Below, piece by piece: positions 2,992 through 62,180 of a DNA stretch of 64,000 nucleotides. Origin of the DNA: an uncultured Candidatus Saccharimonas sp. (GTDB taxonomy: Bacteria > Patescibacteriota > Saccharimonadia > Saccharimonadales > OMJO01); assembly GCA_943353165.1 (NCBI GenBank), contig CALRAM010000001.1, positions 173,803 to 237,802 of the forward strand, read 5' to 3'. The position numbers and the translations under genes were made by a program. Numbering within the stretch: the stretch's first letter is position 1; each line of letters opens with the position of its first letter. Below the pieces are notes generated by a model. That model was not told where the DNA came from, made no database searches, and worked only from the letters and a program-made list of their open reading frames with translations.

Positions 2992-3705
2992 ATGCCGTAC
3001 CCTCAACGCCTACCCATAATAAACTCTGATGACGGGCAATGGGGCGATATCCTAAATCAGTACCTCAAAAAAGAACATTTTGACGATGGTACCAACAACC
3101 CCGTAAATGGAGGACATCAAACCATCACCATAGTGGCAGGTACGGCTGGTGCTGGTACTGCACCTATAAAATTCGCATCAGGCACGCTGATGACAACTGC
3201 CGAGGCCGGTGCCATGGAGTTCCTGTCTGATAAACTGTACTTTACTATTACAACTGGTACGGTTCGTCGGACCGTAGCTATCTACGATGACAGTAGTGGT
3301 GCTACAGGCGACATCTATTACAGGACAGCTGGCGGTTCTTTTAGCAGGCTAGGGGTAGGTGCTTCGGGAGAAGTCTTGAAGGTTAGCGGAGGGTTGCCTT
3401 CCTGGGGAGTGGTAACCAGCAGCACTTTTTCTACTAGCACGAAAACCGCAGACTATACGATAGCCACGCCAGATACGGTGGTGCTAGTTGACGCTACCGC
3501 TGGAGTCATAGTCATCACTCTGCCCGTAGCCAGCACAGCTAGTGGTTACAGGTTTTTTGTCAAAAAGATAGATTCATCTGCAAACACAGTTACAATAACT
3601 AGATCTGGGGCCGACAACATAGATGGTGGGACCACGGCAGTCATTTCCGTACAGTACACCAGCATAACCATAGTAAGTAACGGAACAAATTGGTTTATAA
3701 TATAA
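2992..3705 (+). CDS. Hypothetical protein, phage tail-fibre-like, no signal peptide
   Basis: 237 aa, Gly/Thr/Ala-rich. The segment AGTAPIKFASGTLMTTAEAGAMEFLSDKLYFT resembles N-terminal regions of phage fibre proteins as I recall them. No signal peptide or TM helix. Confidence 0.4.
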   Translation: MPYPQRLPIINSDDGQWGDILNQYLKKEHFDDGTNNPVNGGHQTITIVAGTAGAGTAPIKFASGTLMTTAEAGAMEFLSDKLYFTITTGTVRRTVAIYDDSSGATGDIYYRTAGGSFSRLGVGASGEVLKVSGGLPSWGVVTSSTFSTSTKTADYTIATPDTVVLVDATAGVIVITLPVASTASGYRFFVKKIDSSANTVTITRSGADNIDGGTTAVISVQYTSITIVSNGTNWFII

Positions 3706-3726
3706 CGAAAGCTAAGAGGTAAAGAC

Positions 3727-4407
3727 ATGTCCTACAATCCAAACAATCCAAATGGTCAAAACACAATGGCAAACTCTGCGCCTGTGACTATAGCCAGCGA
3801 CCAAACAGCCGTGCCTGTCAGTGCCACAACTTTGCCGTTGCCAACTGGTGCAGCTACCGAAACAACGCTGGCTTCTATAAAAGATACAGCAGGTATCAAA
3901 AAGATAACAGATGCATTACCAGCAGGTACAAACCTATTAGGCAAAGTTGGTATAGATCAAACAACACCCGGCACAACAAACCTAGTAGCAGCAAACATTA
4001 CTCAACTAGCGGGGACTGCCACAGCCGTTGGTGTCGGTGCTTCAAGTGCGGGTACAGCACGTGTAGTACAGGCTAATGACGCTGGCAAGACAATTCAATC
4101 TAAAGCTGGAACAGTTGCTATAAGTGGTGATAATACCATTATAAATGCTGGTACTAACAAGCTAAAAATTAAAGCGTTTTCACTAACGACTACATCTACC
4201 GCTGCTGTTACCTGTATATTCAAATCTGGTGCGACCGTACTTTGGCAAGTAGTATTACAAGCACCGACTGGTGTCAGCGTTGGTGCTAACCTGGTAGTAC
4301 CTGCTCCAGATTACATATTTTCAACAGCTAGTGCTACACTATTAAACTTAAACCTAAGCTCGGGACAGACAATACATTATTCAGTATCTTATTACGACGA
4401 GGCATAA
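3727..4407 (+). CDS. Hypothetical protein, phage structural-like, no signal peptide
   Basis: 226 aa with an AAGAGG SD. The Ala/Thr-rich N-terminal half (LPLPTGAATETTLASIKD) is followed by a beta-rich C-terminal domain. It lies 21 nt after the upstream gene and 3 nt before the next. Confidence 0.4.
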   Translation: MSYNPNNPNGQNTMANSAPVTIASDQTAVPVSATTLPLPTGAATETTLASIKDTAGIKKITDALPAGTNLLGKVGIDQTTPGTTNLVAANITQLAGTATAVGVGASSAGTARVVQANDAGKTIQSKAGTVAISGDNTIINAGTNKLKIKAFSLTTTSTAAVTCIFKSGATVLWQVVLQAPTGVSVGANLVVPAPDYIFSTASATLLNLNLSSGQTIHYSVSYYDEA

Positions 4408-4410
4408 CAT

Positions 4411-7400
4411 ATGCAGCAAGACGGAACTATTTATACGGCTAAACCCGCAGATTATACAGAAATTGTTGTCGGTGATGAAAAGCAACCAGAGTTTTATCCC
4501 CGCGTCAAAATTAAGAAATGGGATAATGAAGTCAATCTATCCGTTGGATTAACTAACCCGATTGCTGGATCTAATGTAGTACAAGAGGGCGAACAAATCA
4601 CTTGGTCTAACTCTGATACTGAAGCCCGTTTTTATCCGATTAATGCTTCTGTAATGCCAGCAGCAACAGGTATACGTAGGATAATGAAGAATAAGTTTAT
4701 TCAGCCCTATGAGGCTAGTGCCGAGTACGAGTTTATGCGCCATAGGGCAAATCGACTATTAACAATCATTGACATTGCTACGTACATTACTCCACCGATG
4801 CTTATGCATTTTGATGCCATGCCTACTGGTCGATATACCGAAGTAGAAGATGATGGTTATGCTATAGATTATGATTATGCTGATAAATCGGCATATCATC
4901 CCGATGATATGCTAATGCCAAAAGTGGGAAGGATACCGGCTAACAGGATATATTCTCCTTACACCGCTTCTGCTAACCCTTATTTTGCGGACGAGGGTCT
5001 AGTCAATGTTGATATCCAGTATGGTTTTACTGATGTACCTGGTATTGAAAATGTTTGGTGTGATTCCATTGTTGAAGTTCTAGCAAATCACGGTGTTGAA
5101 GTTATTCGCCCGACCAAGAGAACCAAGTTGTATTTCAAGCACAAAGGGCGGCTAGTCAAGTTTCATAGCGCAGAAAATGCTCGTGGTGTAGTTGCTTGTT
5201 ATATCAATTTGAATTGTATGTACAACAAGGCTTATGATTACTATAAGCCTGGTGTAGAGCACGACGTGCGCGATGAGTATGCTTATGGCTTACAAGTTGC
5301 TTATCCAGAAATAACTATTGATATTGTTAATGAAGTCGTGGGTTTGTTTGCTGAGAAACTATCTCTTCCTATAGACGACACGGAGTATAGTGACGCTGAA
5401 TGGGAATCTATAAGGGCTATAATTCCCAAGCATAAGGATGTTGCTTGGATACGGGAGGCCAAACGACAAGACGCTAACTGGTTTTATACTGTTCCTAGAG
5501 ATGGTTTTGAGTTTGAGTTTGATGTATATGAGAAGCCAGACACAAACATATTTGATCTTTCGATCACTACTAAGGGTTTGGATTTTTATAGACAAGAAGC
5601 CTTAACTCCTGAAGAGATAGAGGAAGGTTTCTCGCGCGACCCTGATGTGGTTGGCAGTTATGCTGTCTATCATTCTGAGATTAAATATAACAACGAGTAT
5701 CAGACTGGTAAAGCTTTTCATATTTATCGCCCAATAGCCAGAGACGCTAACGGAATAGCTTATTTTTGCGATATGGATATTGATATAGAAAATAGCATTA
5801 TGCGAATTACAGTGCCACAAATATTTTTAGACGAAGCCACTTATCCCGTTATCATTGATCCTACCTTTGGTTATGGAAGTGTGGGAGCGAGTGCGACTGG
5901 TTTTGGTAATCAGATTATGGGGACAGTTCAGACTATGCCTGAAGCTGGTTATGTGACCTCTATGACGGCTTATATTTCAACATCCAATAGTTCTGTCGAC
6001 ACATATAATTTTGAGTTTGGACTTTATGATACTTCTGGCAATTACTTGGCTCAGAGCGGCAACACATCAACTACGGCTAATTTGAACTCATGGTCTACTC
6101 TTAATTTAAATTCTGCTTATAATCTACCTTCGGCTTCTTATGTGCTGTCTACGTGGGGTAATATTGTTTCAGGCACTTATTCGTCTCCTTCTACGGGTAT
6201 CATGACTATTGCTTATGATTCTACAGTTGGTAAAACTTCTAAATATGCTTCTGCTGCGTACAGCGCTGATAATTGGCCTTCTACTGTTTCTTTTACAAAT
6301 TGGTCTGATATACAACTTTCTATTTATGCTACGTATACAGTACCAATTGGTTACAAGTGGCCTGTAATGATGGGTAACTCTGCTGCTTTGGCGTCTAGTA
6401 GTGGTGCTAGGTATGCGCCGATGTACGGTGGATCGGCAACGGCCTGGGCAACAAATGCTTCCGCTACGTCTGTCGTTTCAACATCTGATGCATGGTATTC
6501 TGACTTTAGGTTTGATTTAACTACTGCACCTGGTGGTGTTACTGCCAGAACAATGTCTGTTTCTGAAAATATACCAGCAACAATAACTGGTGCAGCAGTA
6601 ACAGCTACTAATTCGACAGATGTAGTATACTTAAATGCTGGAACTAGCCTGTATATTGGAAATGCACCGACTGGTACACCAGCCAGCTCAACTGGTAACA
6701 AATGGCGACTAAATGTAAGCAGTACATATCAGGCTTGGTATTCAACTTCAATCTCAGCCCTGAGTACCACAGCTAATAGGTTTATGGGAGTACAAGATGG
6801 AAAAGGACTTAGTACAACGGCGGCATCTGCTACTTCTACAATGCCTAACGAACCTGGCACAATTAGAAACGCTCGCTGTAAGATCGTAGGTGGCACGCTG
6901 GGTTCAGGCTCTTATACTATCACTTTGGTTAAAGGTGGTATTGATACATCTATTATAATGACGCTAAACAGCGCTACTTCTTTCGCCACCGATACTGATA
7001 CTGTAGCTGTAACTAATAGCAATACACTTTATTGGAAAATTGTACCATCAACCCCAGATGCTGGCGTATGGGTAGCTATATCTTGTGAGTACGAGTCAAC
7101 AACACCAGGGCGTGGAATAATCTTTGGTGGCGTTAGTACCGCTGTGTCTGGTACTACATATTCATCGTCTTTTGATGCCTGGAACGCCACCGAAACGCTT
7201 ATATCCGCTAGGGCAGTTACGCACACAATTATCGCGTTGCGAGCCGATTTATCTGTTGCACCAGGCTCTACCAACACTCGAACGCTAACATTTAGAAAGA
7301 ACGCTGCCAACCAGACACCAGCAATTACAATAACCAGTACAGCAGTAACAGGAAGCTGGTCTGGTAGTCTGGCTGTTGCCACCGATGATTTAATAGATGT

Positions 7401-7524
7401 CCAGCACAGCTCTACTGGTGCTCCAGCTAACTCTAACCTTTTCTGGTCTTATGTATTCACCGCACCAGCAGTTGCAGTTACAGCAACTTACGCCCCTCAA
7501 ATGCTGTTAATGGGTGTTGGGTAG
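4411..7524 (+). CDS. Large (1037 aa) hypothetical protein, phage fibre/receptor-binding-like, with triplicated C-terminal module
   Basis: No signal peptide. The globular N-terminal half includes GKAFHIYRPIARDANG..ATYPVIIDPTFGY. The Ser/Thr/Ala-rich C-terminal half has three ~120-aa modules starting near nt 6502, 6862 and 7234 (DLTTAPGGVTARTMSV vs DLSVAPGSTNTRTLTF). Confidence 0.45.
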   Translation: MQQDGTIYTAKPADYTEIVVGDEKQPEFYPRVKIKKWDNEVNLSVGLTNPIAGSNVVQEGEQITWSNSDTEARFYPINASVMPAATGIRRIMKNKFIQPYEASAEYEFMRHRANRLLTIIDIATYITPPMLMHFDAMPTGRYTEVEDDGYAIDYDYADKSAYHPDDMLMPKVGRIPANRIYSPYTASANPYFADEGLVNVDIQYGFTDVPGIENVWCDSIVEVLANHGVEVIRPTKRTKLYFKHKGRLVKFHSAENARGVVACYINLNCMYNKAYDYYKPGVEHDVRDEYAYGLQVAYPEITIDIVNEVVGLFAEKLSLPIDDTEYSDAEWESIRAIIPKHKDVAWIREAKRQDANWFYTVPRDGFEFEFDVYEKPDTNIFDLSITTKGLDFYRQEALTPEEIEEGFSRDPDVVGSYAVYHSEIKYNNEYQTGKAFHIYRPIARDANGIAYFCDMDIDIENSIMRITVPQIFLDEATYPVIIDPTFGYGSVGASATGFGNQIMGTVQTMPEAGYVTSMTAYISTSNSSVDTYNFEFGLYDTSGNYLAQSGNTSTTANLNSWSTLNLNSAYNLPSASYVLSTWGNIVSGTYSSPSTGIMTIAYDSTVGKTSKYASAAYSADNWPSTVSFTNWSDIQLSIYATYTVPIGYKWPVMMGNSAALASSSGARYAPMYGGSATAWATNASATSVVSTSDAWYSDFRFDLTTAPGGVTARTMSVSENIPATITGAAVTATNSTDVVYLNAGTSLYIGNAPTGTPASSTGNKWRLNVSSTYQAWYSTSISALSTTANRFMGVQDGKGLSTTAASATSTMPNEPGTIRNARCKIVGGTLGSGSYTITLVKGGIDTSIIMTLNSATSFATDTDTVAVTNSNTLYWKIVPSTPDAGVWVAISCEYESTTPGRGIIFGGVSTAVSGTTYSSSFDAWNATETLISARAVTHTIIALRADLSVAPGSTNTRTLTFRKNAANQTPAITITSTAVTGSWSGSLAVATDDLIDVQHSSTGAPANSNLFWSYVFTAPAVAVTATYAPQMLLMGVG

Positions 7525-7562: not shown

Positions 7563-8471
7563 ATGCAATGCACCATGGAAAATACGTCAACTAAAATCTT
7601 CAGAACAAAATATTTGGCATTGATGGCGCTGGTTTTAGTCAGCCTAATTATTACCTTATCGGTCAAACCAGTATCTGCAGGGAGCCTTTCAATACAGCCA
7701 CTAAGGCAAGAGCTAGAATTAAAACCAGGACAAGCCAATAGCTCCAATATATTAGTGCGCAACACTGGACGGGAACCAGCAACGATAAATATTAGCGCCG
7801 AAACATTTAATGTCATAAACGAGGATTACGACTACTCTTTTGCTCAATCCCAAGATCTGGCCAAATGGGTTCGTTTTGACGAACAAAAAACCACAATATT
7901 ACCAAACCAGAGTTTTAAGTTTAATTTTACTATTAGCGTGCCCATTTCTGCCGAACCGGGAGGCAAATACATCGCCATCTTTAGCACACTCTCCAGTCAA
8001 TCGCTATCCAACATTAATTCTATAGAGAGGGTAGGGCAACTAATCTATCTATCCGTTTCTGGAGCAAGTTCACGCACCGGTTCTGTAATAGGACTGTCTG
8101 TGCCAAAAATCAGTTTCGATTCCAAGTTGGACTGGAGTTTGCGAGTTCACAATACTGGTTCAGCTCATTTCAAAAGCACCATAACCACAAAAACTAGTTA
8201 CTGGCCATTTGGGTCTGTACAAACCGAGAACACAGAACATTTGATATTGCCAAACACCATCCGCCTAATAAAAAATAAAACACAACTGGGCAAGCCGATT
8301 GGACTATACAAAAACCAGATTTCCGCCGGCAAGGGCGACAAACCGCCAGAAGTTCAAACGCACTGGGTTCTGTATCTGCCGCCATTTCAGTTTGTGCTAT
8401 TTGTTTTAGCAATTATTTCTGGCTGGATAACTATTTTAAAAATACGTTCTAAAAAATCTAATAAAACGTAA
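7563..8471 (+). CDS. DUF916/DUF3324-like cell-surface protein (signal peptide, C-terminal TM anchor)
   Basis: Signal peptide (..VKPVSAGS). N-domain SIQPLRQELELKPGQANSSNILVRNTG, then ISVPISAEPGGKYIAIF. C-terminal TM helix plus a Lys-rich tail (ILKIRSKKSNKT). The architecture matches CscA-type WxL-interacting proteins. Confidence 0.55.
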   Translation: MQCTMENTSTKIFRTKYLALMALVLVSLIITLSVKPVSAGSLSIQPLRQELELKPGQANSSNILVRNTGREPATINISAETFNVINEDYDYSFAQSQDLAKWVRFDEQKTTILPNQSFKFNFTISVPISAEPGGKYIAIFSTLSSQSLSNINSIERVGQLIYLSVSGASSRTGSVIGLSVPKISFDSKLDWSLRVHNTGSAHFKSTITTKTSYWPFGSVQTENTEHLILPNTIRLIKNKTQLGKPIGLYKNQISAGKGDKPPEVQTHWVLYLPPFQFVLFVLAIISGWITILKIRSKKSNKT

Positions 8472-8473
8472 AT

Positions 8474-9040
8474 CTACTGAGTTTGAGGTACCGCAGTATA
8501 GACTATAGTGGTTTGGTAGTCGCCAGAAGCCTTGGCGTTGTCTATCTTTATTCCGTATCTGACGGTTGTCTGGTCGCCAGAAGTGTATGGGCCCGTAGCA
8601 GTCCTTATCAGGACATCAGACAGCGTAATACCTGCAAAATTGGTACTGGCGTCTGTGTTGTAGCCCCAAGTGTTAACTGCTAATGGTGCTACCAAGACAT
8701 TGGCGCTAGCAGCCACCGTGCTGGCACCATTTACTAGATTAGTATTTGTAAGAGCCCTGACATACAGTTTGAAACCCACTACATCCGCGCTGGTTACAGT
8801 CACAACGCTGTCGCCTGTGGCCAGAGTGCCAGAATCGCTGGGGGTCACAGAGATAGAAACATTGCCATTCGTAGATATAGTTAGGCTGGTGGGGCCGCCG
8901 TATGGAACATTTGCCCCATAATTACCAGCTCCAAAAGGACTAGCAAAAGCAACTGTGCTCGAACCAACAAAAACAAAAATACTTATAGGCATAATTATGC
9001 TAATTACACTATGTCTCAAAGTATTGTAACGCCTAAACAT
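8474..9040 (-). CDS. Small secreted beta-rich protein, WxL-like C-terminus
   Basis: The track ORF runs 8474..9082. I prefer the internal Met at 9040, which gives the signal peptide MFRRYNTLRHSVISIIMPISIFVFVGSSTVAFA. The C-terminus ..ASGDYQTTIVYTAVPQTQ resembles the terminal WxL motif with Tyr in place of Trp. The start is uncertain. Confidence 0.45.
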   Translation of the reverse strand: MFRRYNTLRHSVISIIMPISIFVFVGSSTVAFASPFGAGNYGANVPYGGPTSLTISTNGNVSISVTPSDSGTLATGDSVVTVTSADVVGFKLYVRALTNTNLVNGASTVAASANVLVAPLAVNTWGYNTDASTNFAGITLSDVLIRTATGPYTSGDQTTVRYGIKIDNAKASGDYQTTIVYTAVPQTQ

Positions 9041-9070
9041 ATGCTTTATTATAGTATTATCTTGAATAGT

Positions 9071-10099
9071 ATGAAAGAGCATAAAAGCCTGTCTCCGAGC
9101 AGGTCGATACGCCTAGCAGTTGCGTTAGGCCTAGTTTCGTTGCTGATTTTACAAATATTGATGGCAAAGGTCCAAGCCGCCGTCATAACAGGCCGAACGC
9201 TTACTATAGGCAGTTCTGTGGCTTCGGCATCTACCAGCTACACGTTTACCTTTACAGTTCCTTCTGCAACCGTACTGGCTTCCTTTGAGGCAGCCGCCTG
9301 TACAACCGCCAGCGGGGCCTGCACGACACCGGCTGGTTTTACCAGCGCAACATCTACTCTATCCGCACAACCCACAAACCTAGGAGACGCAACTGGCTGG
9401 ACCGTAAATACAGGCACAGCAGGAAGTCTTCGTATCAAAAAAACAGGCAACGTTGCTGCTCCAGCTGGCAGCCAAACTGTTGCATTTTCTGGCGTAACCA
9501 ACCCAAGCGCCACAAACTCTACATTTTTTATGAGGCTAACTACATACTCTGACGATGCATGGACAACTGCCGTAGATACTGGGAATGTTGCGTCGTCTAC
9601 TGCCGGACAAATAACTGTAACAGCTAGTGTAGGCGAAACGCTGACCTTTACGCTTGCTTCTGCAACAGTAGCCCTGGGAACTTTGACCACAGCCACTACA
9701 GGCTCTGGCACTTCAACTATGACGGCTGCCACAAACTCTGCCAGCGGTTACGTAGTTACTATAAATGGATCCACCCTGACTAGCGGTGTTGACACCATTA
9801 CTGCATTGGCTGCTCAGACTGCTAGTACGGTAGGCAATAGTCAGTTTGGTATCAACCTAAAAGCCAACACGACTCCGTCGGTCGGTTCAAATGTTTCTGG
9901 GACTGGCTCTGGAACAGCCACTGCCAACTATGGTACTGCCGACCAATTCCGTTTCGTTACAGGCGATAGCGTGGCATCGGCATCTGGACCAACAAATTCA
10001 AACACATATACTGTCAGCTACATTGGAAACATTGCTGGCATAACACTTTCCGGAAGTTACTCAACAGTATTGACCTATATAGCTACCGCAACATTTTAA
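9071..10099 (+). CDS. Secreted Thr/Ser/Ala-rich surface protein, WxL-like, paralog 1
   Basis: The track ORF starts at 9011. The Met at 9071 gives the signal peptide MKEHKSLSPSRSIRLAVALGLVSLLILQILMAKVQA. Contains GDATGWTVNT and ends ..GSYSTVLTYIATATF. Paralogous to 10102..11208. Confidence 0.5.
   Translation: MKEHKSLSPSRSIRLAVALGLVSLLILQILMAKVQAAVITGRTLTIGSSVASASTSYTFTFTVPSATVLASFEAAACTTASGACTTPAGFTSATSTLSAQPTNLGDATGWTVNTGTAGSLRIKKTGNVAAPAGSQTVAFSGVTNPSATNSTFFMRLTTYSDDAWTTAVDTGNVASSTAGQITVTASVGETLTFTLASATVALGTLTTATTGSGTSTMTAATNSASGYVVTINGSTLTSGVDTITALAAQTASTVGNSQFGINLKANTTPSVGSNVSGTGSGTATANYGTADQFRFVTGDSVASASGPTNSNTYTVSYIGNIAGITLSGSYSTVLTYIATATF
9755..9983 (+). repeat. 229-bp near-identical segment, copy A, shared by the tandem paralogs
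   Basis: 226/229 identical to 10864..11092 at a constant offset of 1109. The mismatches are at 9833, 9841 and 9976. The flanking parts of the two genes are far more diverged. Confidence 0.95.
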
Positions 10100-10101
10100 T
10101 A

Positions 10102-11208
10102 ATGTTAGGCCTCAAAAAGCTGCAGCAAAACTATGCGACAAGACAAGCTAATATAATTCGATCAAAACTATGTATAAAAATTTTTTATATTTTGGTTCTA
10201 GTTTTTGCCCCATTATTTGGTATGCCCATTGACTCTAGCGCTGCAACCATAACTAGCCGTTCTATTACCTTATCTACGTCTGTTGCAAGTGCTGTAGGAG
10301 TAAACTACACCCTCACTAGCGCAGCACTCCCCACTGTTGCCAGTATAGTAAAATCTGTTAATGTCGAGTTTTGCACCTCTCCGAATGGCGTATGCGTTGC
10401 CCCCGCTGGTTTTAGTTCTGCAATCTCTACACTTGCGTCTCAACCTAGCGGTTTAGGCGATGCAACTGGCTGGACCGTAAATACTGCATCTGCAAACCAA
10501 CTACGAGTAACAAACTCCACCAACACAACTACGCCAGCAGGAGCAGTCAGCATCGCATGGGCGGGTGTACAAAACCCTAGCACCACAAACACAACTTTTT
10601 ATGGCATCATTACTACCTATTCAGATGCCTCATGGACTACAGTTTTGGACAGCGGTACAGTTGCGCTTAGCACATCAACAGCAATACAGGTTTCTTTGAC
10701 AGTAGCAGAGATATTGACCTTTTGTACTGGCACCAGTATAACCGGCACAAACTGTGCGACTATAGCAGGCAATACAGTGTCGCTGGGCAACGGTTCTCCG
10801 ACAACAACATCCAGCGGGACGTCTGTCATGGCGATATCTACTAATGCCCCTACAGGGTACAGCGTTACTATAAATGGATCCACCCTGACTAGCGGTGTTG
10901 ACACCATTACTGCATTGGCTGCTCAGACTGCCAGTACGGCAGGCAATAGTCAGTTTGGTATCAACCTAAAAGCCAACACGACTCCGTCGGTCGGTTCAAA
11001 TGTTTCTGGGACTGGCTCTGGAACAGCCACTGCCAACTATGGTACTGCCGACCAATTCCGTTTCGTTACAGGCGATAGCGTGGCTTCGGCATTGATTCCT
11101 ACGAATTCCAATACTTTTACTGTCAGTTACATTGGAAACATTGCTGGTATAACAGCACCAGGAATATACGCCACAAGCCTAACATTCGTTGCGACTGCAA
11201 ATTTCTAA
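10102..11208 (+). CDS. Secreted Thr/Ser/Ala-rich surface protein, WxL-like, paralog 2
   Basis: Signal peptide (..LFGMPIDSSAA). Carries the same GDATGWTVNT motif and ends ..GIYATSLTFVATANF. Starts 2 nt after the stop of paralog 1. Confidence 0.5.
   Translation: MLGLKKLQQNYATRQANIIRSKLCIKIFYILVLVFAPLFGMPIDSSAATITSRSITLSTSVASAVGVNYTLTSAALPTVASIVKSVNVEFCTSPNGVCVAPAGFSSAISTLASQPSGLGDATGWTVNTASANQLRVTNSTNTTTPAGAVSIAWAGVQNPSTTNTTFYGIITTYSDASWTTVLDSGTVALSTSTAIQVSLTVAEILTFCTGTSITGTNCATIAGNTVSLGNGSPTTTSSGTSVMAISTNAPTGYSVTINGSTLTSGVDTITALAAQTASTAGNSQFGINLKANTTPSVGSNVSGTGSGTATANYGTADQFRFVTGDSVASALIPTNSNTFTVSYIGNIAGITAPGIYATSLTFVATANF
10864..11092 (+). repeat. 229-bp near-identical segment, copy B
   Basis: See copy A. 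The segment encodes VTINGSTLTSGVDTITALAAQTAST(V/A)GNSQFGINLKANTTPSVGSNVSGTGSGTATANYGTADQFRFVTGDSVAS. Confidence 0.95.
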
Positions 11209-11227
11209 TATGATACTATTGACTCAT

Positions 11228-12205
11228 ATGAAGAGGGTTAGCGCTAAAACTTTGTTGGCTTTGATAGTTATAATTTCTATCACTATTAATCACGCTTATT
11301 CTGCAAAAGCTGCCACTGACAATGCGCAAGGCCTTCAGATATCTCCAGTTCTAGTAGATATATTAGCTGACCCCGGCAAAACATACTCTTTTAAAATATC
11401 AATCCTAAATGTAACTACCGGAGATTTGCTGTTCAAACCAATTATCAATGATTTTCAGTCCAAAAATGATAGCGGAGAACCAGACATAATCCTAGACGGG
11501 ACAGTACCCAGTACAACCTTGAAAGGGTGGATAAGCCCCATACCCGACATAACCGTAAAAGCCAAAAAATCAGTAGAAGTAAATGTCAGTATCACAGTGC
11601 CTCTAAATGCTGAACCAGGAGGACATTATGGTGTCGTACGGTTTAGTGGAATAGCCCCAGCTCTGGATAAAAGCGGTGTTTCTCTGGCTGCCAGCGCCGG
11701 GCCTCTAGTGCTAGTTAGAGTCAGTGGAGCTGTAAAAGAAAGTTTAGTTGTCAAAGATTTTTACACTGTTCGTGGTAAAAACCGAAGTGTATGGTTCGAG
11801 TCTAGTCCCGTGACTTTCGTAGAAAAGATTACTAATACTGGAAATACGCACTTAAAACCAGTTGGCAACCTGGTGATAACCAATATGTTCGGGGACACCA
11901 CTGCATCGTTAAAAATTAATGATGAAAAAGGCAATGTTTTGCCATCTGGTACTAGAAATTTCGAACAAATACTTCAATCAAAAAGAATGTTTGGTAGATA
12001 CACAGCCAAGTTGGCGTTGGCTTATGGTAGCACTGGGCAAGCATTAACCGGAACTATTACTTTTTGGGTTATTCCGTATAAAATTATAATATTATCATTG
12101 GCTACATTGATAATATTGTTTATGGCCATAAAAAATCTAATAAGAATGTATAACCGCGCGGTTATAAAAAAGGCTCTTGGTGAAACGAAAAAAAAGACAA
12201 AATAA
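11228..12205 (+). CDS. DUF916/DUF3324-like cell-surface protein, second copy
   Basis: The track ORF starts at 11189. The Met at 11228 gives the signal peptide MKRVSAKTLLALIVIISITINHAYSA. Contains GLQISPVLVDILADPGKTYSFKISILN and ITVPLNAEPGGHYGVVRF. C-terminal TM helix plus a basic tail. Confidence 0.55.
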   Translation: MKRVSAKTLLALIVIISITINHAYSAKAATDNAQGLQISPVLVDILADPGKTYSFKISILNVTTGDLLFKPIINDFQSKNDSGEPDIILDGTVPSTTLKGWISPIPDITVKAKKSVEVNVSITVPLNAEPGGHYGVVRFSGIAPALDKSGVSLAASAGPLVLVRVSGAVKESLVVKDFYTVRGKNRSVWFESSPVTFVEKITNTGNTHLKPVGNLVITNMFGDTTASLKINDEKGNVLPSGTRNFEQILQSKRMFGRYTAKLALAYGSTGQALTGTITFWVIPYKIIILSLATLIILFMAIKNLIRMYNRAVIKKALGETKKKTK

Positions 12206-13229
12206 ATTAAGGTTTTTTTCTTTGAAAAATCTAGGCAAATTACTAGGTATTGCAGACAAAAGGCACACAGGAAAAATCATAAAAAACAAGCACAGCTCTT
12301 TTGGAGTTTTGTTTTTATTGATGCTAACTCTATTGCCCGTAATGAATTTCAGCAACCTGGTACTAAGCACGCAAACCAATAGCGGAAATGTTTCTGTAAC
12401 CTTATTAGTGCCTGGACCTTCGCCTACTACGCCAGCAACTATCCTGTCCCCGACAAATGGAAATACAAATACGGCAAATATTAGCGTTTCTGGTACCTGC
12501 GGACCAAATTTGTTAGTAAAAATATTCAATAACTCATCATTTGTTGGTTCTGTTTTTTGTCAACTCAATGGTACTTTTAGTATAAACATTACGCTGATCG
12601 CAGGCGTCAATAATATTACCGCTTTAAACTATGACAACCTGAACCAACCCGGACCAGCGTCTCCGAATGTATCTGTAAACCTGATCAGTGGGGCAGGGCA
12701 ACAATTAAATCCAAAAATGATTATTTTGGCCGACTCTGACTACCGTCAAATCAACCCAAACACACTGACAAATTGGAATTTTTCATTAAAAAACGGACAG
12801 TCACCATACAATGCTTTCATTGACTGGGGTGACGGCAAGAACCAGAAAATGGTATTGAACAAGGCAGGGGATTTTGACTTTAGCCATAGCTACTCAGAAC
12901 CTGGAAAATACAACATCAGTTTGACTATTACCGATTATCTGGGCAACCAAGCGCGTATCCAACTAAATGTTACAGTAAACGGCATACCCGTAGCTCCAAT
13001 TGGCCCGACCGAGCAGCCAAAACAAGCATGCGATAACACAAATAATCAACTTAGTAGTTTTGGGCTTTTTAGATGCAAAATACAGTCCTCTTTGGGTCAA
13101 TATTGGATAGTTTTGTATTGGTTGATGATGCTGGTGTTGGGTATATTCTGGCTAGCCGCCATAAAAAGGCGCAAAAGGGAAGACGAAAAGTCATCAAAGC
13201 GTCGCCCAATCCATACGGCAAGAGCCTGA
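12177..13229 (+). CDS. PKD/Ig-like domain surface protein with C-terminal TM anchor
   Basis: TTG/GTG start. Basic N-region plus a hydrophobic helix, then an Ig-like segment. PKD signature FIDWGDGKNQ...HSYSEPGKYNISLTITDYLGN. C-terminal TM helix followed by KRRKREDEK. Confidence 0.6.
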   Translation: MVKRKKRQNKLRFFSLKNLGKLLGIADKRHTGKIIKNKHSSFGVLFLLMLTLLPVMNFSNLVLSTQTNSGNVSVTLLVPGPSPTTPATILSPTNGNTNTANISVSGTCGPNLLVKIFNNSSFVGSVFCQLNGTFSINITLIAGVNNITALNYDNLNQPGPASPNVSVNLISGAGQQLNPKMIILADSDYRQINPNTLTNWNFSLKNGQSPYNAFIDWGDGKNQKMVLNKAGDFDFSHSYSEPGKYNISLTITDYLGNQARIQLNVTVNGIPVAPIGPTEQPKQACDNTNNQLSSFGLFRCKIQSSLGQYWIVLYWLMMLVLGIFWLAAIKRRKREDEKSSKRRPIHTARA

Positions 13230-15701: not shown

Positions 15702-17651
15702 ATGAAAAAAATTAATAAAATACACTTTAATAGATTGACAGCTAGCCTGGTCTCTATAATAGTGTCTGTATCCACCTTATTAGCCGGTATTTTGACGCCT
15801 ACTCCTGCGGATGCTATTGTGCCAACAACCGTATTGAATGTCGGAGACCTAGGCAGTGGCTTTAGCAGAGGTAACGCCATAAATGACCAAGGCCAAGTAG
15901 CCGGCTACTCATTTACTTCCCTCGAGACGGGCTATCACCAGAATGCATTTCTCTGGAGCCCGTCCACGGGGACCGAAAATTTGGGATCTCTCAATACCAA
16001 TTCGGGCCCATCTTATGTTCAGGACCTAAATTCTTCAATGGCGCGTGGCTTAAATAATAACGGGCAGGTAGTTGGTAGTTCCACCTCTAGTGTGCTGACA
16101 GAAGTAAGCAATGGGGATTGGCGTTACACAAACCATGCCTTTGTATGGACGCAATCAACCGGAATGGTGGATCTAGGTGTCCCAAATAATTCTTATAGCT
16201 CTGAAGCAGTAGGCATCAACGACAACGGTCAGATAATTGGCACATCCCAAAATAATTCTGGCCCAGCATCTGGTTGGCTTTGGGAAAATGGTACATTTAC
16301 TACGATACCCTGCATCCCAGACGATATAAATGATTCAGGTATAGTGGCAGGAGCATATTTTTTAAACGCGCGATGGACTGCCTGTACCTGGGATAGCATT
16401 AATGGACTTCGGGATTTAGGCATTATAGGCGGACCAAATAGCTGGGCAACAGGCATAAACGCGGCCGGACAAGTAGTTGGTCGTGTAGAACCTATTGATG
16501 AAAATACACCAGAATCCCAAGTATTTATTTGGGACCCCTTTACTGGACAGAGAGATATGTCTGAATTTGATATTGCACTGGGCGGAAAGCCAGCCTTTAT
16601 TACTGAAGTTAATGACATAAACGACAGCATGCAGGTAACCGGATCGTTCCTCAGTTCAGATATCTGCGCCCAGCGACATGTCTTTGCCTGGGATCCAATA
16701 AATGGAGTAACAGATATCGGGGCCGATGGATATATCACAGTAGGAGATTCCATAAATAACTCTGGCCAGGTCGCAGGCTATAGCCAAATCGGAGTTGACG
16801 CATATACCAACGATCCATGCATCTCGTCGCCGACTACCAGCTCTCCTAGCATCCTAATGAGTAGTGCAACACTGGCTTCTACAACAACTACTACTACAAA
16901 TGACAAAGCAACGATATGGAGTGGCAACAAACCGACCGTTAGAAAGATTTCTGTAGGAGGCGGATCAATAGTACGTGGAGATTCAGGTATTGCCCGAACA
17001 ATTCAGTTCCCAGTTACATTGTCGGTACCTTCACGGACAAATGTAACAGTAAGCTACGCAATTGCTAGTGACGGCACAGGAACAGCATTGCCTGTAACTG
17101 ACTTTGTAGCAAAAACCGGCAAGGTAACCTTTAGGGTTGGTCCCAAGGGCTACACGCCCACAACGCTTTGGGTTAACACATTAGTAAAACCCAGCACAAC
17201 TGGTGGCACAAAAACTTTCAAGGTCACGATCGGAAACCCAATCGGCGGATACACCTTGAATGCAGACGGGACAAATGCAGTGGGCACCATCCTACAACGC
17301 AGTGGGTCAACGATTAGGGCCAGTGTCGGGGACACTAGTATTTGGGAAGGCGACCATGGCAATAACGCTGTTAAAGTATGGGTAAACCTATCCGCTCCAG
17401 CCACCAGCACTATTAAATTGAATCTCAGTTTGGTAAATGGCAGTGCCCAAGCTGGTTCTGGTTACAAAACTTTTTCCACAAAAACCGTCAAGTTTCTGGC
17501 AGGGCAACGACAGAAAAGCTTTACTATCTACACGCGATCAAACCTAACTACAGAAACAAACAAAAACTTTTCAGTCGTATTGTCAAACCCGTCTATGGGG
17601 CTAACTATTGACCGTGGTACAGCGACAATAAACATACTGAACGACGACTAA
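15702..17651 (+). CDS. Secreted HAF-family extracellular-repeat protein with two C-terminal Calx-beta-like domains
   Basis: Signal peptide. Repeats of the type (N/H)AF(L/V)W..xxG..DLG.. occur about six times. The C-terminus carries Calx-beta-like segments (VTLSVPSRTNVTVSYAIASDGTGTA..DF; VNLSAPATSTIKLNLSLVNGSAQAGSGY). Confidence 0.65.
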   Translation: MKKINKIHFNRLTASLVSIIVSVSTLLAGILTPTPADAIVPTTVLNVGDLGSGFSRGNAINDQGQVAGYSFTSLETGYHQNAFLWSPSTGTENLGSLNTNSGPSYVQDLNSSMARGLNNNGQVVGSSTSSVLTEVSNGDWRYTNHAFVWTQSTGMVDLGVPNNSYSSEAVGINDNGQIIGTSQNNSGPASGWLWENGTFTTIPCIPDDINDSGIVAGAYFLNARWTACTWDSINGLRDLGIIGGPNSWATGINAAGQVVGRVEPIDENTPESQVFIWDPFTGQRDMSEFDIALGGKPAFITEVNDINDSMQVTGSFLSSDICAQRHVFAWDPINGVTDIGADGYITVGDSINNSGQVAGYSQIGVDAYTNDPCISSPTTSSPSILMSSATLASTTTTTTNDKATIWSGNKPTVRKISVGGGSIVRGDSGIARTIQFPVTLSVPSRTNVTVSYAIASDGTGTALPVTDFVAKTGKVTFRVGPKGYTPTTLWVNTLVKPSTTGGTKTFKVTIGNPIGGYTLNADGTNAVGTILQRSGSTIRASVGDTSIWEGDHGNNAVKVWVNLSAPATSTIKLNLSLVNGSAQAGSGYKTFSTKTVKFLAGQRQKSFTIYTRSNLTTETNKNFSVVLSNPSMGLTIDRGTATINILNDD

Positions 17652-60749: not shown

Positions 60750-62180
60750 CTATTCTAGTTCTTCTATGTGCCTGTATAATCTAGCGATTTCGTCTGGGTT
60801 TTCTCCATAGGAATCATTTAGGTAGACTTCCCTGTCACCACCTTCAAAATTATATTTCACCTCATTCCAGTTTACGGAGCGAACTCTAATAGATCTTTTT
60901 GGAACTACATTTCGCAAGCATCTGATAATTTCGCCGCGTAGTTCGGCACGGCCTTTTGGCGGATTTTTTACTAAATGAGGGGCTAGGCTAATGGCGTCTA
61001 GTGGATCATCGAAATGCCCCAATTTTCGTAGTTTTATGGCTATACCGTTATAGTTTAGGTCTCCCCACATTCTGTCGATTGCGCGGGCATGGACATAATC
61101 AGTCGTTGAACCCGTTCGGGATTTTGCTGATTTTATGATGTGATCCTTGGCTATCCAATCAACCTTGTTTTTCAAAAATTCCTTATCCTTGGGGCTGTCA
61201 ACTAAATGTTCGGCTGCAGCGTACCATTCGTTAGCCATTATTTTCTCGTCTTCAGGGACGGATACCGTTTCTATGAACTCCAGTGCCAGCTCGGCTAATG
61301 CTAGCTGCACCTCGGCCGAGCGAATCTTTACCCCACTATCTAGCTCGACCAGCTTGGACAGTTTATTGTCTTTTGCCACACTCACTGTTACATTTGCAGG
61401 CCTGTATAGTTTTAAGTCATTCATGTTTACACCATGTTCCATCATTCGCAGAACCAACGAAGTCGACGCAATCTTGTAGGCGGATGACCATGGAATCATA
61501 TTTGGATCTCCAGAAACTATATGTAGTCTTCGAAAATTGTTATTACTAGAAAAACTTTCGTCACGTGTATTGATATGCGGCTTGCTGATACTGCTTGTAG
61601 TCGTAGAACTGATGGGTGTTTTTACGTGTTGAGCTTTTTGAGCTACAAAATATTTACCGGTTCTGCACTCCACATGTCCAGCTCCTGATAAAATCATTCT
61701 AGTGGATAGGTGCGTAATCAACCCGTTCCAATGATCAGAATAACCATCCCAACTTTCTGATTTTTCTGGATTTATGCGTTCTAATGTTTGATAATTCTCG
61801 TGGACACCCCAGCTGATTTTTGGATCATCTCCAATAACTCTGTTGTTGAGCCTAAAATGTTGTTGTTCCAATTTACCGCCATGCAAATCTACGATTTCGG
61901 ACATTATGATTTCCCCAGCGATAACAGCCGCAACTGTCTCTCTAATGGTCTGACACTCTGGTGTCGCATACTCTGGATGATTGCCAGAATCTACATATAT
62001 CCTTGACCCATTCTGGGAAAACTGTTGAATAGTGCCCAGTTTTTTAGTCATTCTGCGACCCTCAAACAATTCGTAGATTGGTTGCTCGTACGGATTAATC
62101 TCTAGCTCTGATTCAATGCCGTAAATTCTACGTACAGGTTCAATCTCTGGACAATCAGAATAAAAATTCAACGAGGACAT
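60750..62180 (-). CDS. Pup-ligase/deamidase-family protein (PafA/Dop homolog)
   Basis: RRIYGIESELE and NGSRIYVDSGNHPEYATPEC(Q) match the N-terminal carboxylate-amine-ligase core of PafA/Dop. The 476-aa length is typical of the family. Confidence 0.7.
   Translation of the reverse strand: MSSLNFYSDCPEIEPVRRIYGIESELEINPYEQPIYELFEGRRMTKKLGTIQQFSQNGSRIYVDSGNHPEYATPECQTIRETVAAVIAGEIIMSEIVDLHGGKLEQQHFRLNNRVIGDDPKISWGVHENYQTLERINPEKSESWDGYSDHWNGLITHLSTRMILSGAGHVECRTGKYFVAQKAQHVKTPISSTTTSSISKPHINTRDESFSSNNNFRRLHIVSGDPNMIPWSSAYKIASTSLVLRMMEHGVNMNDLKLYRPANVTVSVAKDNKLSKLVELDSGVKIRSAEVQLALAELALEFIETVSVPEDEKIMANEWYAAAEHLVDSPKDKEFLKNKVDWIAKDHIIKSAKSRTGSTTDYVHARAIDRMWGDLNYNGIAIKLRKLGHFDDPLDAISLAPHLVKNPPKGRAELRGEIIRCLRNVVPKRSIRVRSVNWNEVKYNFEGGDREVYLNDSYGENPDEIARLYRHIEELE

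Follow-up and report, generated by a model that had tools for sequence, protein, structure and literature searches.

Here we describe three adjacent genes, g1, g2 and g3, encoding proteins of 237, 226 and 1037 amino acids (aa), on a 64,000-nucleotide stretch (the window) of contig CALRAM010000001.1 from an uncultured Candidatus Saccharimonas sp. Together with s64, a gene for a small membrane protein directly upstream, g1 constitutes a conserved cellular anchor in a neighbourhood of surface-protein and twin-arginine translocation (Tat) genes, and this anchor carries a cassette of fibre proteins which lack export signals and vary from lineage to lineage. In the window, the cassette consists of g2 and g3, whose families are mostly phage-borne as judged from the occurrence of their relatives. 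We propose, with a probability of about 50%, that g1–g3 form the variable distal end of a gene cluster conserved in Saccharibacteria, and that this cluster produces a surface appendage resembling a phage fibre, with a cellular base, a tip borrowed from phages and export by piggy-backing on the Tat system.

The anchor gene g1 (2992–3705; features of the window are on the plus strand unless stated otherwise) codes for the best-conserved protein of the locus, with a mean column identity of 79% in an alignment of 27 homologues. In total, 538 homologues of the same length and 60–76% identity were found, the longest contig among them measuring 1.18 Mb. When each GTDB species was represented by one genome, relatives were retrieved in 232 species genomes, nearly all labelled Saccharibacteria or Saccharimonadales, and none in 2.9 million viral contigs of IMG/VR. 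For 80 of the species loci we fetched the flanking sequence (10 kb on each side of g1); all 80 are chromosomal Saccharibacteria contexts, not phage or prophage structural modules. The initial annotation, made from the letters of the window, had called the three genes an orphan operon, with the edge of a highly degraded prophage as one possible reading. The label "orphan" is wrong for g1, which is part of a cluster shared by at least 232 species genomes of Saccharibacteria. A prophage remnant without present function would be in line with the mainly phage-encoded relatives of g2 and g3. We nevertheless consider it very improbable and rejected it, given the absence of g1 from viral contigs, its conservation and the chromosomal synteny of the locus across the order; moreover, all three open reading frames (ORFs) are intact, g3 being identical on 20 contigs (GCA_964703795.1 among them), and the window contains no integrase, att-like repeat or other phage gene.

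Two parts can be distinguished in the g1 protein. The N-terminal 138 residues, specific to Saccharibacteria, are its most conserved part and gave no phage match. The C-terminal part (aa ~147–237) is a docking domain of the T4 gp9/gp10 type, and it is the only part for which the AlphaFold2 (AF2) model is confident (predicted local distance difference test, pLDDT, 70–85). With this model, Foldseek retrieved from the PDB Solidus gp83 (2.5e-6), residues 1–335 of the CBA120 tailspike TSP4 (5e-5), a KP1 baseplate protein and T4 gp9/gp10; a tailspike, a capsid spike and baseplate proteins are likewise among the structural matches of the C-terminal domain. At the sequence level, the domain matched phrog_37034 (8.6e-8) and phrog_20556, annotated as "baseplate protein" (2.5e-4), and residues ~153–237 were found in 33 phage records with up to 50% identity, in tail fibre, tailspike, minor tail and baseplate-wedge proteins. 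The phage-fibre-like style noted in the initial annotation is thus borne out for this domain. A PDB sequence search with the g1 family profile returned chance-level matches only.

Domains of the T4 gp9/gp10 and tailspike-adaptor type are used by phages for docking other fibres. In about 25 loci, the N-terminal domain of g1 is joined to a different C-terminal part or forms part of a fusion with a protein of 400–2775 aa; the proteins fused to it carry Phage_tail_C, YadA_head or Gly_rich_2 domains. As a conserved lineage-specific N-domain is joined to a phage-type docking domain and occurs in varied fusions, g1 looks like an anchor, composed of a base-binding domain peculiar to the lineage and a docking domain of phage type. 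Fusions of s64 with g1, sought as Rosetta-stone evidence, were not encountered among the longer g1 homologues, whose extra length stems from insertions within the shaft or from wrongly called starts. Other proteins encoded in the same loci begin with a copy of the first ~34 residues of g1 (PQRLP..DDG.WG..) (L042, positions 12109 and 19100; L056, position 5609), which would fit several fibres that use one shared docking peptide.

The recurring gene order in the 80 loci is [tatA tatC], s64, g1, a variable stretch of 3–8 kb, and then genes resembling fn3_302, m202, p362/p368, p338 and p350, the surface-protein genes that follow the trio in the window. A large clade shows a permuted order (p350, p338, s64, g1, variable stretch, fn3, m202). 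Surface-gene homologues flank g1 in most of the loci, with permuted order. We regard the placement between tatAC and a surface locus, already remarked on in the initial annotation, as functionally meaningful. In relatives, g1 keeps company with s64 and the surface genes and is often next to tatAC, and the cassette behind it differs between lineages.

The s64 gene (2629–2823), located between tatC and g1, had been missed in the initial annotation. In its 64-aa product, the Tat-type motif TRKQFL is followed by some 20 hydrophobic residues, and the conserved sequence GFGGGKYG stands at the C-terminus. No other ORF of the 64 kb is Tat-like. Where the surface genes are present, g1 usually has such a membrane protein of 60–70 aa encoded before it; at least 52 of 77 loci have an s64-like ORF directly upstream, which in many cases touches the g1 start codon. 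The 418 members of the family are all about 64–70 aa long and either unnamed or called "hypothetical"; few have an organism name, almost always of Saccharibacteria. Conserved throughout are the motif [TSD]-R-[RK]-x-F-L, the ~20-aa hydrophobic stretch and an invariant C-terminal G-F-G-x-x-[KR]-[FY]-G. Over its full length, s64 matches the NCBIfam model NF038009, "twin-arginine translocation system-associated protein", with an E-value of 6e-10, far below the curated cutoff.

In the window, tatA (1306–1488, 60 aa; Pfam TatA_B_E on the identical gene in locus L008) and tatC (1508–2515, 335 aa; Pfam TatC) are directly upstream of s64 and g1. Of the 80 loci, 26 have tatA/tatC no more than 10 kb away from g1, arranged in three ways: tatC can be upstream, either co-directional or divergent, or it can be downstream. 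In locus L024, a g2-like gene of 146 aa and a fibre gene of 914 aa come after tatC in the same orientation, and s64, g1 and an fn3-like gene run divergently from tatC. The window TatC has a C-terminal extension of ~85 aa past the usual length, and the TatC of L024 (8507–9421, minus strand) is extended too.

In most lineages, the variable stretch behind g1 is occupied by three genes. The first encodes a repeat protein of 340–900 aa that starts with M-[TA]-Y-[IL]-P-P-x-N-G-G-R; the second, a near-invariant protein of 241 aa with an EED motif and a weak match to family 2 glycosyltransferases (GT2); and the third, a protein of ~200 aa with a weak match to Methyltransf_11. The commonest cassette ends in the latter two genes, as in L013 (12892–14232), L014 (3471–4830) and about 35 other loci. 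The presence of glycosyltransferase-like and methyltransferase-like genes suggests that fibre proteins are modified in the cytoplasm. Hydrophobic segments are rare among cassette ORFs, being absent from 188 and present in 7 of the 195. The 241-aa and ~200-aa genes are missing from the window, which has g2 and g3 instead.

The g2 gene (3727–4407) encodes a fibre or adaptor protein that begins with the peptide MSYNPNNPNGQ, continues with units of ~45 aa and ends in a knob (aa 88–226). Its family is large, with 2408 cluster representatives, in which the knob terminates proteins of 200–1300 aa and the ~45-aa units are repeated up to 18 times. Cassette genes of other genomes begin with this N-terminal peptide too, including the gene after tatC in L024. 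On contig L006, which is phage-like, the C-terminal half of a 384-aa protein is 64% identical to g2; this protein is encoded directly upstream of P0008, a homologue of g3. No match to g2 was obtained in the INPHARED phage records. The contigs of two relatives end inside g2, consistent with strain heterogeneity at this gene.

The third gene, g3 (4411–7524), encodes a protein with a conserved core (aa 1–645) and a variable beta-sandwich tail (aa ~690–1020). We collected 216 homologues, and 215 relatives were found in IMG/VR viral contigs. P0002, 48% identical to g3 over the full length, is encoded on the 38.5-kb contig L001 between a capsid gene accompanied by sugar-modification genes and an SU10-type adaptor, with an SU10-type portal upstream and an amidase downstream. 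P0008 (41% identity) resides on the 45.7-kb contig L006 together with Mu F, SNF2 and endolysin-type genes. Several of the 80 viral g3 loci fetched from IMG/VR include a podophage capsid or adaptor gene, and none of the 80 contains g1, s64, tat or surface genes. In a complete podovirus genome, the g3-related gene is the last large gene of a block upstream of the lysis genes, most of which is annotated as hypothetical; PHROG scans of the g2 and g3 relatives gave a single match, to a "virion structural protein". Only one of the 80 g1 loci (L065) has a g3 relative. Thus, g3 is a phage-derived gene that occupies the cassette only occasionally. The earlier idea of a domesticated fibre module fits g2 and g3, whose relatives are mostly in phage genomes.

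Exchange of g3 alleles can be followed in a near-identical strain (locus L004), in which the flanking proteins are 93–100% identical to those of the window and the DNA is 94.7% identical from position 7058 on. The end of g2 is 94% identical between the two strains and g3 only 42%. The L004 allele (P0009) is closer to P0002 (65%) and P0008 (63%) than to that of the window. Along its length, P0009 is 84–98% identical to P0002 over residues 1–150 and in the windows 301–350 and 401–450, with 64–76% in between, whereas the g3 of our window approaches P0002 over residues 700–800 and 900–1000 (74–88%). These likenesses extend to the DNA level, with 84% identity over 1390 nt between L004 and L001 and 77% over 1155 nt between the window and L001; between the chromosomal alleles of the two strains, there is no DNA alignment in these regions. 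According to these comparisons, g3 alleles are replaced between near-identical strains and are mosaics of podophage alleles. The phage contigs have a GC content of 40–47%, that of the bacterium being 42%, and some of the phage-contig samples have accession numbers near those of the samples of the bacterium.

Such turnover could also be expected of an anti-phage locus, in which displayed copies of receptor-binding proteins mask the cell's own receptor, or cytoplasmic copies poison or mis-target assembling virions, with the capture of current phage alleles as its purpose. The interleaving of chromosomal with phage alleles, their turnover between near-identical strains, the Saccharibacteria-like GC content of the phage contigs and the neighbouring sample accessions would all suit this explanation. 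We still consider it unlikely: PADLOC gave no match for s64, g1–g3 or the five of the six surface-locus proteins that were scanned (p368 was left out), g1 and s64 show the conservation of core genes throughout the order, and most lineages carry a different cassette, not phage-like, with the repeat protein and the two modification-type genes. Because of the latter two points, a housekeeping appendage fits better than an arms-race module.

Two further observations concern the phage relatives of g3. Between the capsid and fibre genes of contig L001 (4361–8139), five sugar-modification genes are encoded, namely a GT2, an epimerase/dehydratase, a protein of the UDP-GlcNAc 2-epimerase type, one of the FdtA type and another glycosyltransferase, which hints at virion glycosylation. 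Many proteins of the g3 family, phage as well as chromosomal, end in hydrophobic-x-G-[VIT]-G, as in ...MLLMGVG in the window (7504–7524) and ...LSLMGVGS in L024 (5050–7794, minus strand).

The AF2 model of g3 (pLDDT 82, predicted template modelling score 0.73) revealed an unexpected domain at about aa 100–350 (4708–5460). All top 34 Foldseek matches in the PDB are members of the LplA/LipB family, with E-values down to 5e-9 and target template modelling scores of up to 0.70, so that the fold is that of the catalytic domain; a viral lipoate-protein ligase matches the model as well. Beta-sandwich or jelly-roll domains make up two thirds of the protein. Its C-terminal half (domains at 6478–7470) resembles, in a Foldseek search of BFVD, the heads of viral proteins with collagen repeats and C1q domains (~125 aa, root-mean-square deviation 2.1, up to 33% identity), and also the N-terminal domain of Mtd, minor tail and tail fibre proteins.

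An alternative is therefore that g3 is mainly an enzyme, a ligase or transferase of the LplA/BPL type whose substrates would be proteins of the fibre or the wall, or else a polymer of the surface, the trio being a modification module and not a fibre. Apart from the fold matches, one homologue has been named "lipoate-protein ligase A" by the Joint Genome Institute, other cassettes hold the glycosyltransferase-like and methyltransferase-like genes, and near-invariant polar residues (R179, D194, K239, K250 and S253) cluster in the ligase-fold domain; judged by secondary structure, the strand with K250 is the counterpart of the one with K133 in LplA. Sequence comparison points the other way. Neither g3 nor 42 homologues matched any Pfam family, BPL_LplA_LipB included, the g3 family profile had no sequence match in the PDB, and the glycine-rich (GGG) adenylate-binding loop of LplA is not conserved. 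An hhalign comparison of g3 residues 177–337 with residues 65–232 of a hand-entered sequence of E. coli LplA is weak (E = 0.003) and places K133 opposite L248, two residues from K250. Considering also the extent of the beta-sandwich and jelly-roll part, as found in tail and fibre proteins, and the location of the family in phage structural modules, we judge a mainly enzymatic g3 quite unlikely. Clear homology to a non-phage enzyme had been named at the outset as a result that would speak against a fibre. The ligase fold is formally such a homology; it does not overturn the fibre reading, because the ligase-fold domain belongs to the phage-borne g3 family itself.

The three genes are tightly packed, with gaps of 21 nt between g1 and g2 and 3 nt between g2 and g3; the coordinates, gaps and peptide strings given in the initial annotation proved correct. 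They are real genes, as many homologues share their start residues and the called starts of all three agree with these N-termini. In none of the three proteins does any hydrophobic segment, whether N-terminal or internal, reach the strength of a signal or transmembrane helix, whereas all six downstream surface genes (fn3_302, m202, p362, p368, p338 and p350) encode an N-terminal one, in agreement with what had been noted before. The same applies to the lack of phage genes elsewhere: no capsid, portal, terminase, integrase or lysis gene and no phage Pfam family was detected among the genes of the 64-kb window. Sheath, tube and baseplate genes, as expected of a tailocin or contractile injection system, were missing from the window and from the related loci. 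The repeat search found no att-like repeats and no template/variable pairs of a diversity-generating retroelement, the only repeat pair touching g1–g3 being a 40-nt match of 65%; with no reverse transcriptase among the window genes, the trio does not qualify as target of such an element. The other window genes are housekeeping genes (SmpB, TerC, GltX, sortase, WhiB, TopA, the MurG-FtsW-MraY-PBP cluster, RecO and others), and the window is a piece of Saccharibacteria chromosome.

According to our proposal, g1 would form the base of the fibre, and g2 would dock on g1 via its conserved N-terminal peptide. The distal binding subunit would be g3, with a ligand pocket in the LplA fold and the C1q-like heads. 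The fibre would fold in the cytoplasm, as phage fibres do, cross the membrane through TatAC by piggy-backing on s64 and then be tethered among the wall proteins by the uncleaved signal-anchor of s64. The appendage may act as an exchangeable adhesin, for example for a partner or host bacterium; alternatively, it may bind the same ligand as the phages. A candidate export route, the Tat system via s64, can thereby be named for what the initial annotation had listed as cargo of an unknown route; that the trio takes it is what we infer.

Several points weigh against this proposal. The weakest link is the Tat step, because the s64 motif is mostly RK (35 of 52 sequences, as opposed to 13 with RR), the cargo would be large and about two thirds of the g1 loci are without tatC within 10 kb. 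The match of s64 to the Tat-signal model TIGR01409 is marginal (13–17 bits, cutoff 16.7), and its sub-cutoff match to NF038009 could mean that s64 is an accessory protein of the Tat system, not a substrate. In size, a full g1–g2–g3 complex would far exceed the cargo known for the Tat system. That g1–g3 leave the cytoplasm is deduced, and their putative docking order is read from conserved termini and gene order alone. Finally, the predicted LplA fold and the conserved polar residues of g3 hint that the protein may be an enzyme and not purely a fibre.

An alternative is display without Tat, since the predominance of RK in the motif and the size of the cargo both speak against classical Tat export. 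The signal-less fibre would then be set free through leaking cells, a lysing subpopulation or vesicles and rebind to the wall, the tatAC neighbourhood concerning s64 only; PblB provides a precedent of a phage protein acting as adhesin (PMC4508584, PMC5241397). We think that this route is improbable, as there is no holin or lysin in the locus or elsewhere in the window, and as it leaves unexplained both the tight coupling of s64 to g1 and the order tatC, g2-like gene, fibre gene on one strand in L024.

Among known systems, the proposed appendage is most readily compared with the branched tailspike and fibre adaptors of phages (XD domains of CBA120 TSP4 and TSP2, T4 gp9/gp10). The C-terminal domain of g1 has their fold and shows sequence kinship, and both systems combine a conserved anchor with exchangeable distal binders that start with short conserved peptides and exchange alleles in a mosaic fashion. 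Unlike these adaptors, the g1 anchor is chromosomal, found order-wide, equipped with a lineage-specific N-domain, absent from viral contigs and encoded beside Tat genes and wall proteins. The export route would resemble Tat hitchhiking, in which small signal-bearing subunits carry signal-less partners through the Tat system (PMC4273604, PMC6719666), as in E. coli PaoABC, the FAD-glucose dehydrogenase with its small signal-bearing subunit and the subunits of NiFe hydrogenases. Common to both is a small protein of twin-arginine type encoded directly before signal-less partners, here next to tatAC, and a cargo expected to fold or oligomerise in the cytoplasm. The differences are that s64 has RK more often than RR, that its "mature" part comprises only ~25 residues, and that the cargo would be a fibre and not a cofactor enzyme.

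PblA and PblB of Streptococcus mitis and S. pneumoniae lie in complete prophages and depend on phage lysis functions; in our case a prophage is missing, and the anchor is a conserved gene of the cell. The likeness consists in signal-less proteins of phage tail-fibre type that are used, or in our case would be used, at the bacterial surface, where the Pbl proteins act as adhesins (PMC4508584, PMC5241397). The neighbouring genes recall the WxL/Csc loci of Firmicutes, with several secreted beta-rich paralogues and also proteins that have a signal, fn3_5, a weak WxLIP_PGBD match and a C-terminal transmembrane segment. The similarity is at or below the Pfam thresholds, however, and no WxL domain was detected; we know of no fibre cassette, s64 or Tat linkage in Firmicute WxL/Csc loci. 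With the LplA, LipB and BirA family, g3 shares the fold of aa ~100–350, but neither membership in the sequence family nor the glycine loop, and its domain is embedded in a beta-rich protein of 1000 aa from phage structural modules.

Literature searches combining Saccharibacteria with tail fibre, WxL or twin-arginine, and LplA with tail fibre, did not turn up a description of this locus. It is possible, though we advance this only tentatively, that environmental Saccharibacteria possess an undescribed appendage in which s64 and g1 are the anchor, assembly and possibly modification take place in the cytoplasm, the folded structure is exported by TatAC and the distal module has repeatedly been swapped with receptor-binding proteins of environmental phages. 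If so, cell and phage would share one pool of host-range determinants and receptor-binding modules. Saccharibacteria live attached to other bacteria, and to our knowledge the choice and holding of their partners have so far been linked only to type IV pili and a few adhesins. Exchangeable phage-type binders on a cellular base would then be a candidate specificity determinant of episymbiosis. The locus would also explain why the Tat system is retained in a reduced genome, and the Tat route, if true, would extend hitchhiking from cofactor enzymes to fibrous surface structures.

The secreted and wall-protein locus linked to the trio consists of fn3_302 (7563–8471), m202 (8474–9082, minus strand), p362 (9011–10099), p368 (10102–11208), p338 (11189–12205) and p350 (12177–13229). 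In Pfam, fn3_302 scored 29.8 bits with fn3_5 (cutoff 27.6) and, weakly, 17.9 bits with WxLIP_PGBD (cutoff 27.3); m202, p362, p368 and p338 had no Pfam match, and weak PKD matches were seen among the surface-locus proteins. Scans of g1–g3 with Pfam, NCBIfam and PADLOC yielded nothing usable, a promoter and terminator scan was uninformative, and Rfam and tRNA scans found only three tRNAs, all distant from the locus. As called, m202 and p362 run in opposite directions and have 72 nt at their starts in common; in relatives, m202 is called with 172 instead of 202 aa, so one of the two starts is probably mis-set. The tandem paralogues p362 and p368 (9011–11208) are 93% identical over their C-terminal 300 nt (9746–10045 and 10855–11154) and diverged in the remainder, which suggests gene conversion or a constrained shared domain. 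A Calx-beta/DUF3466 surface protein (15702–17651), only 31% identical in L004 against 95–100% for the flanks of that strain, is a second strain-hypervariable surface gene near the locus. At the far side of the window, a homologue of the PafA-type Pup ligase is encoded at 60750–62180 (minus strand).

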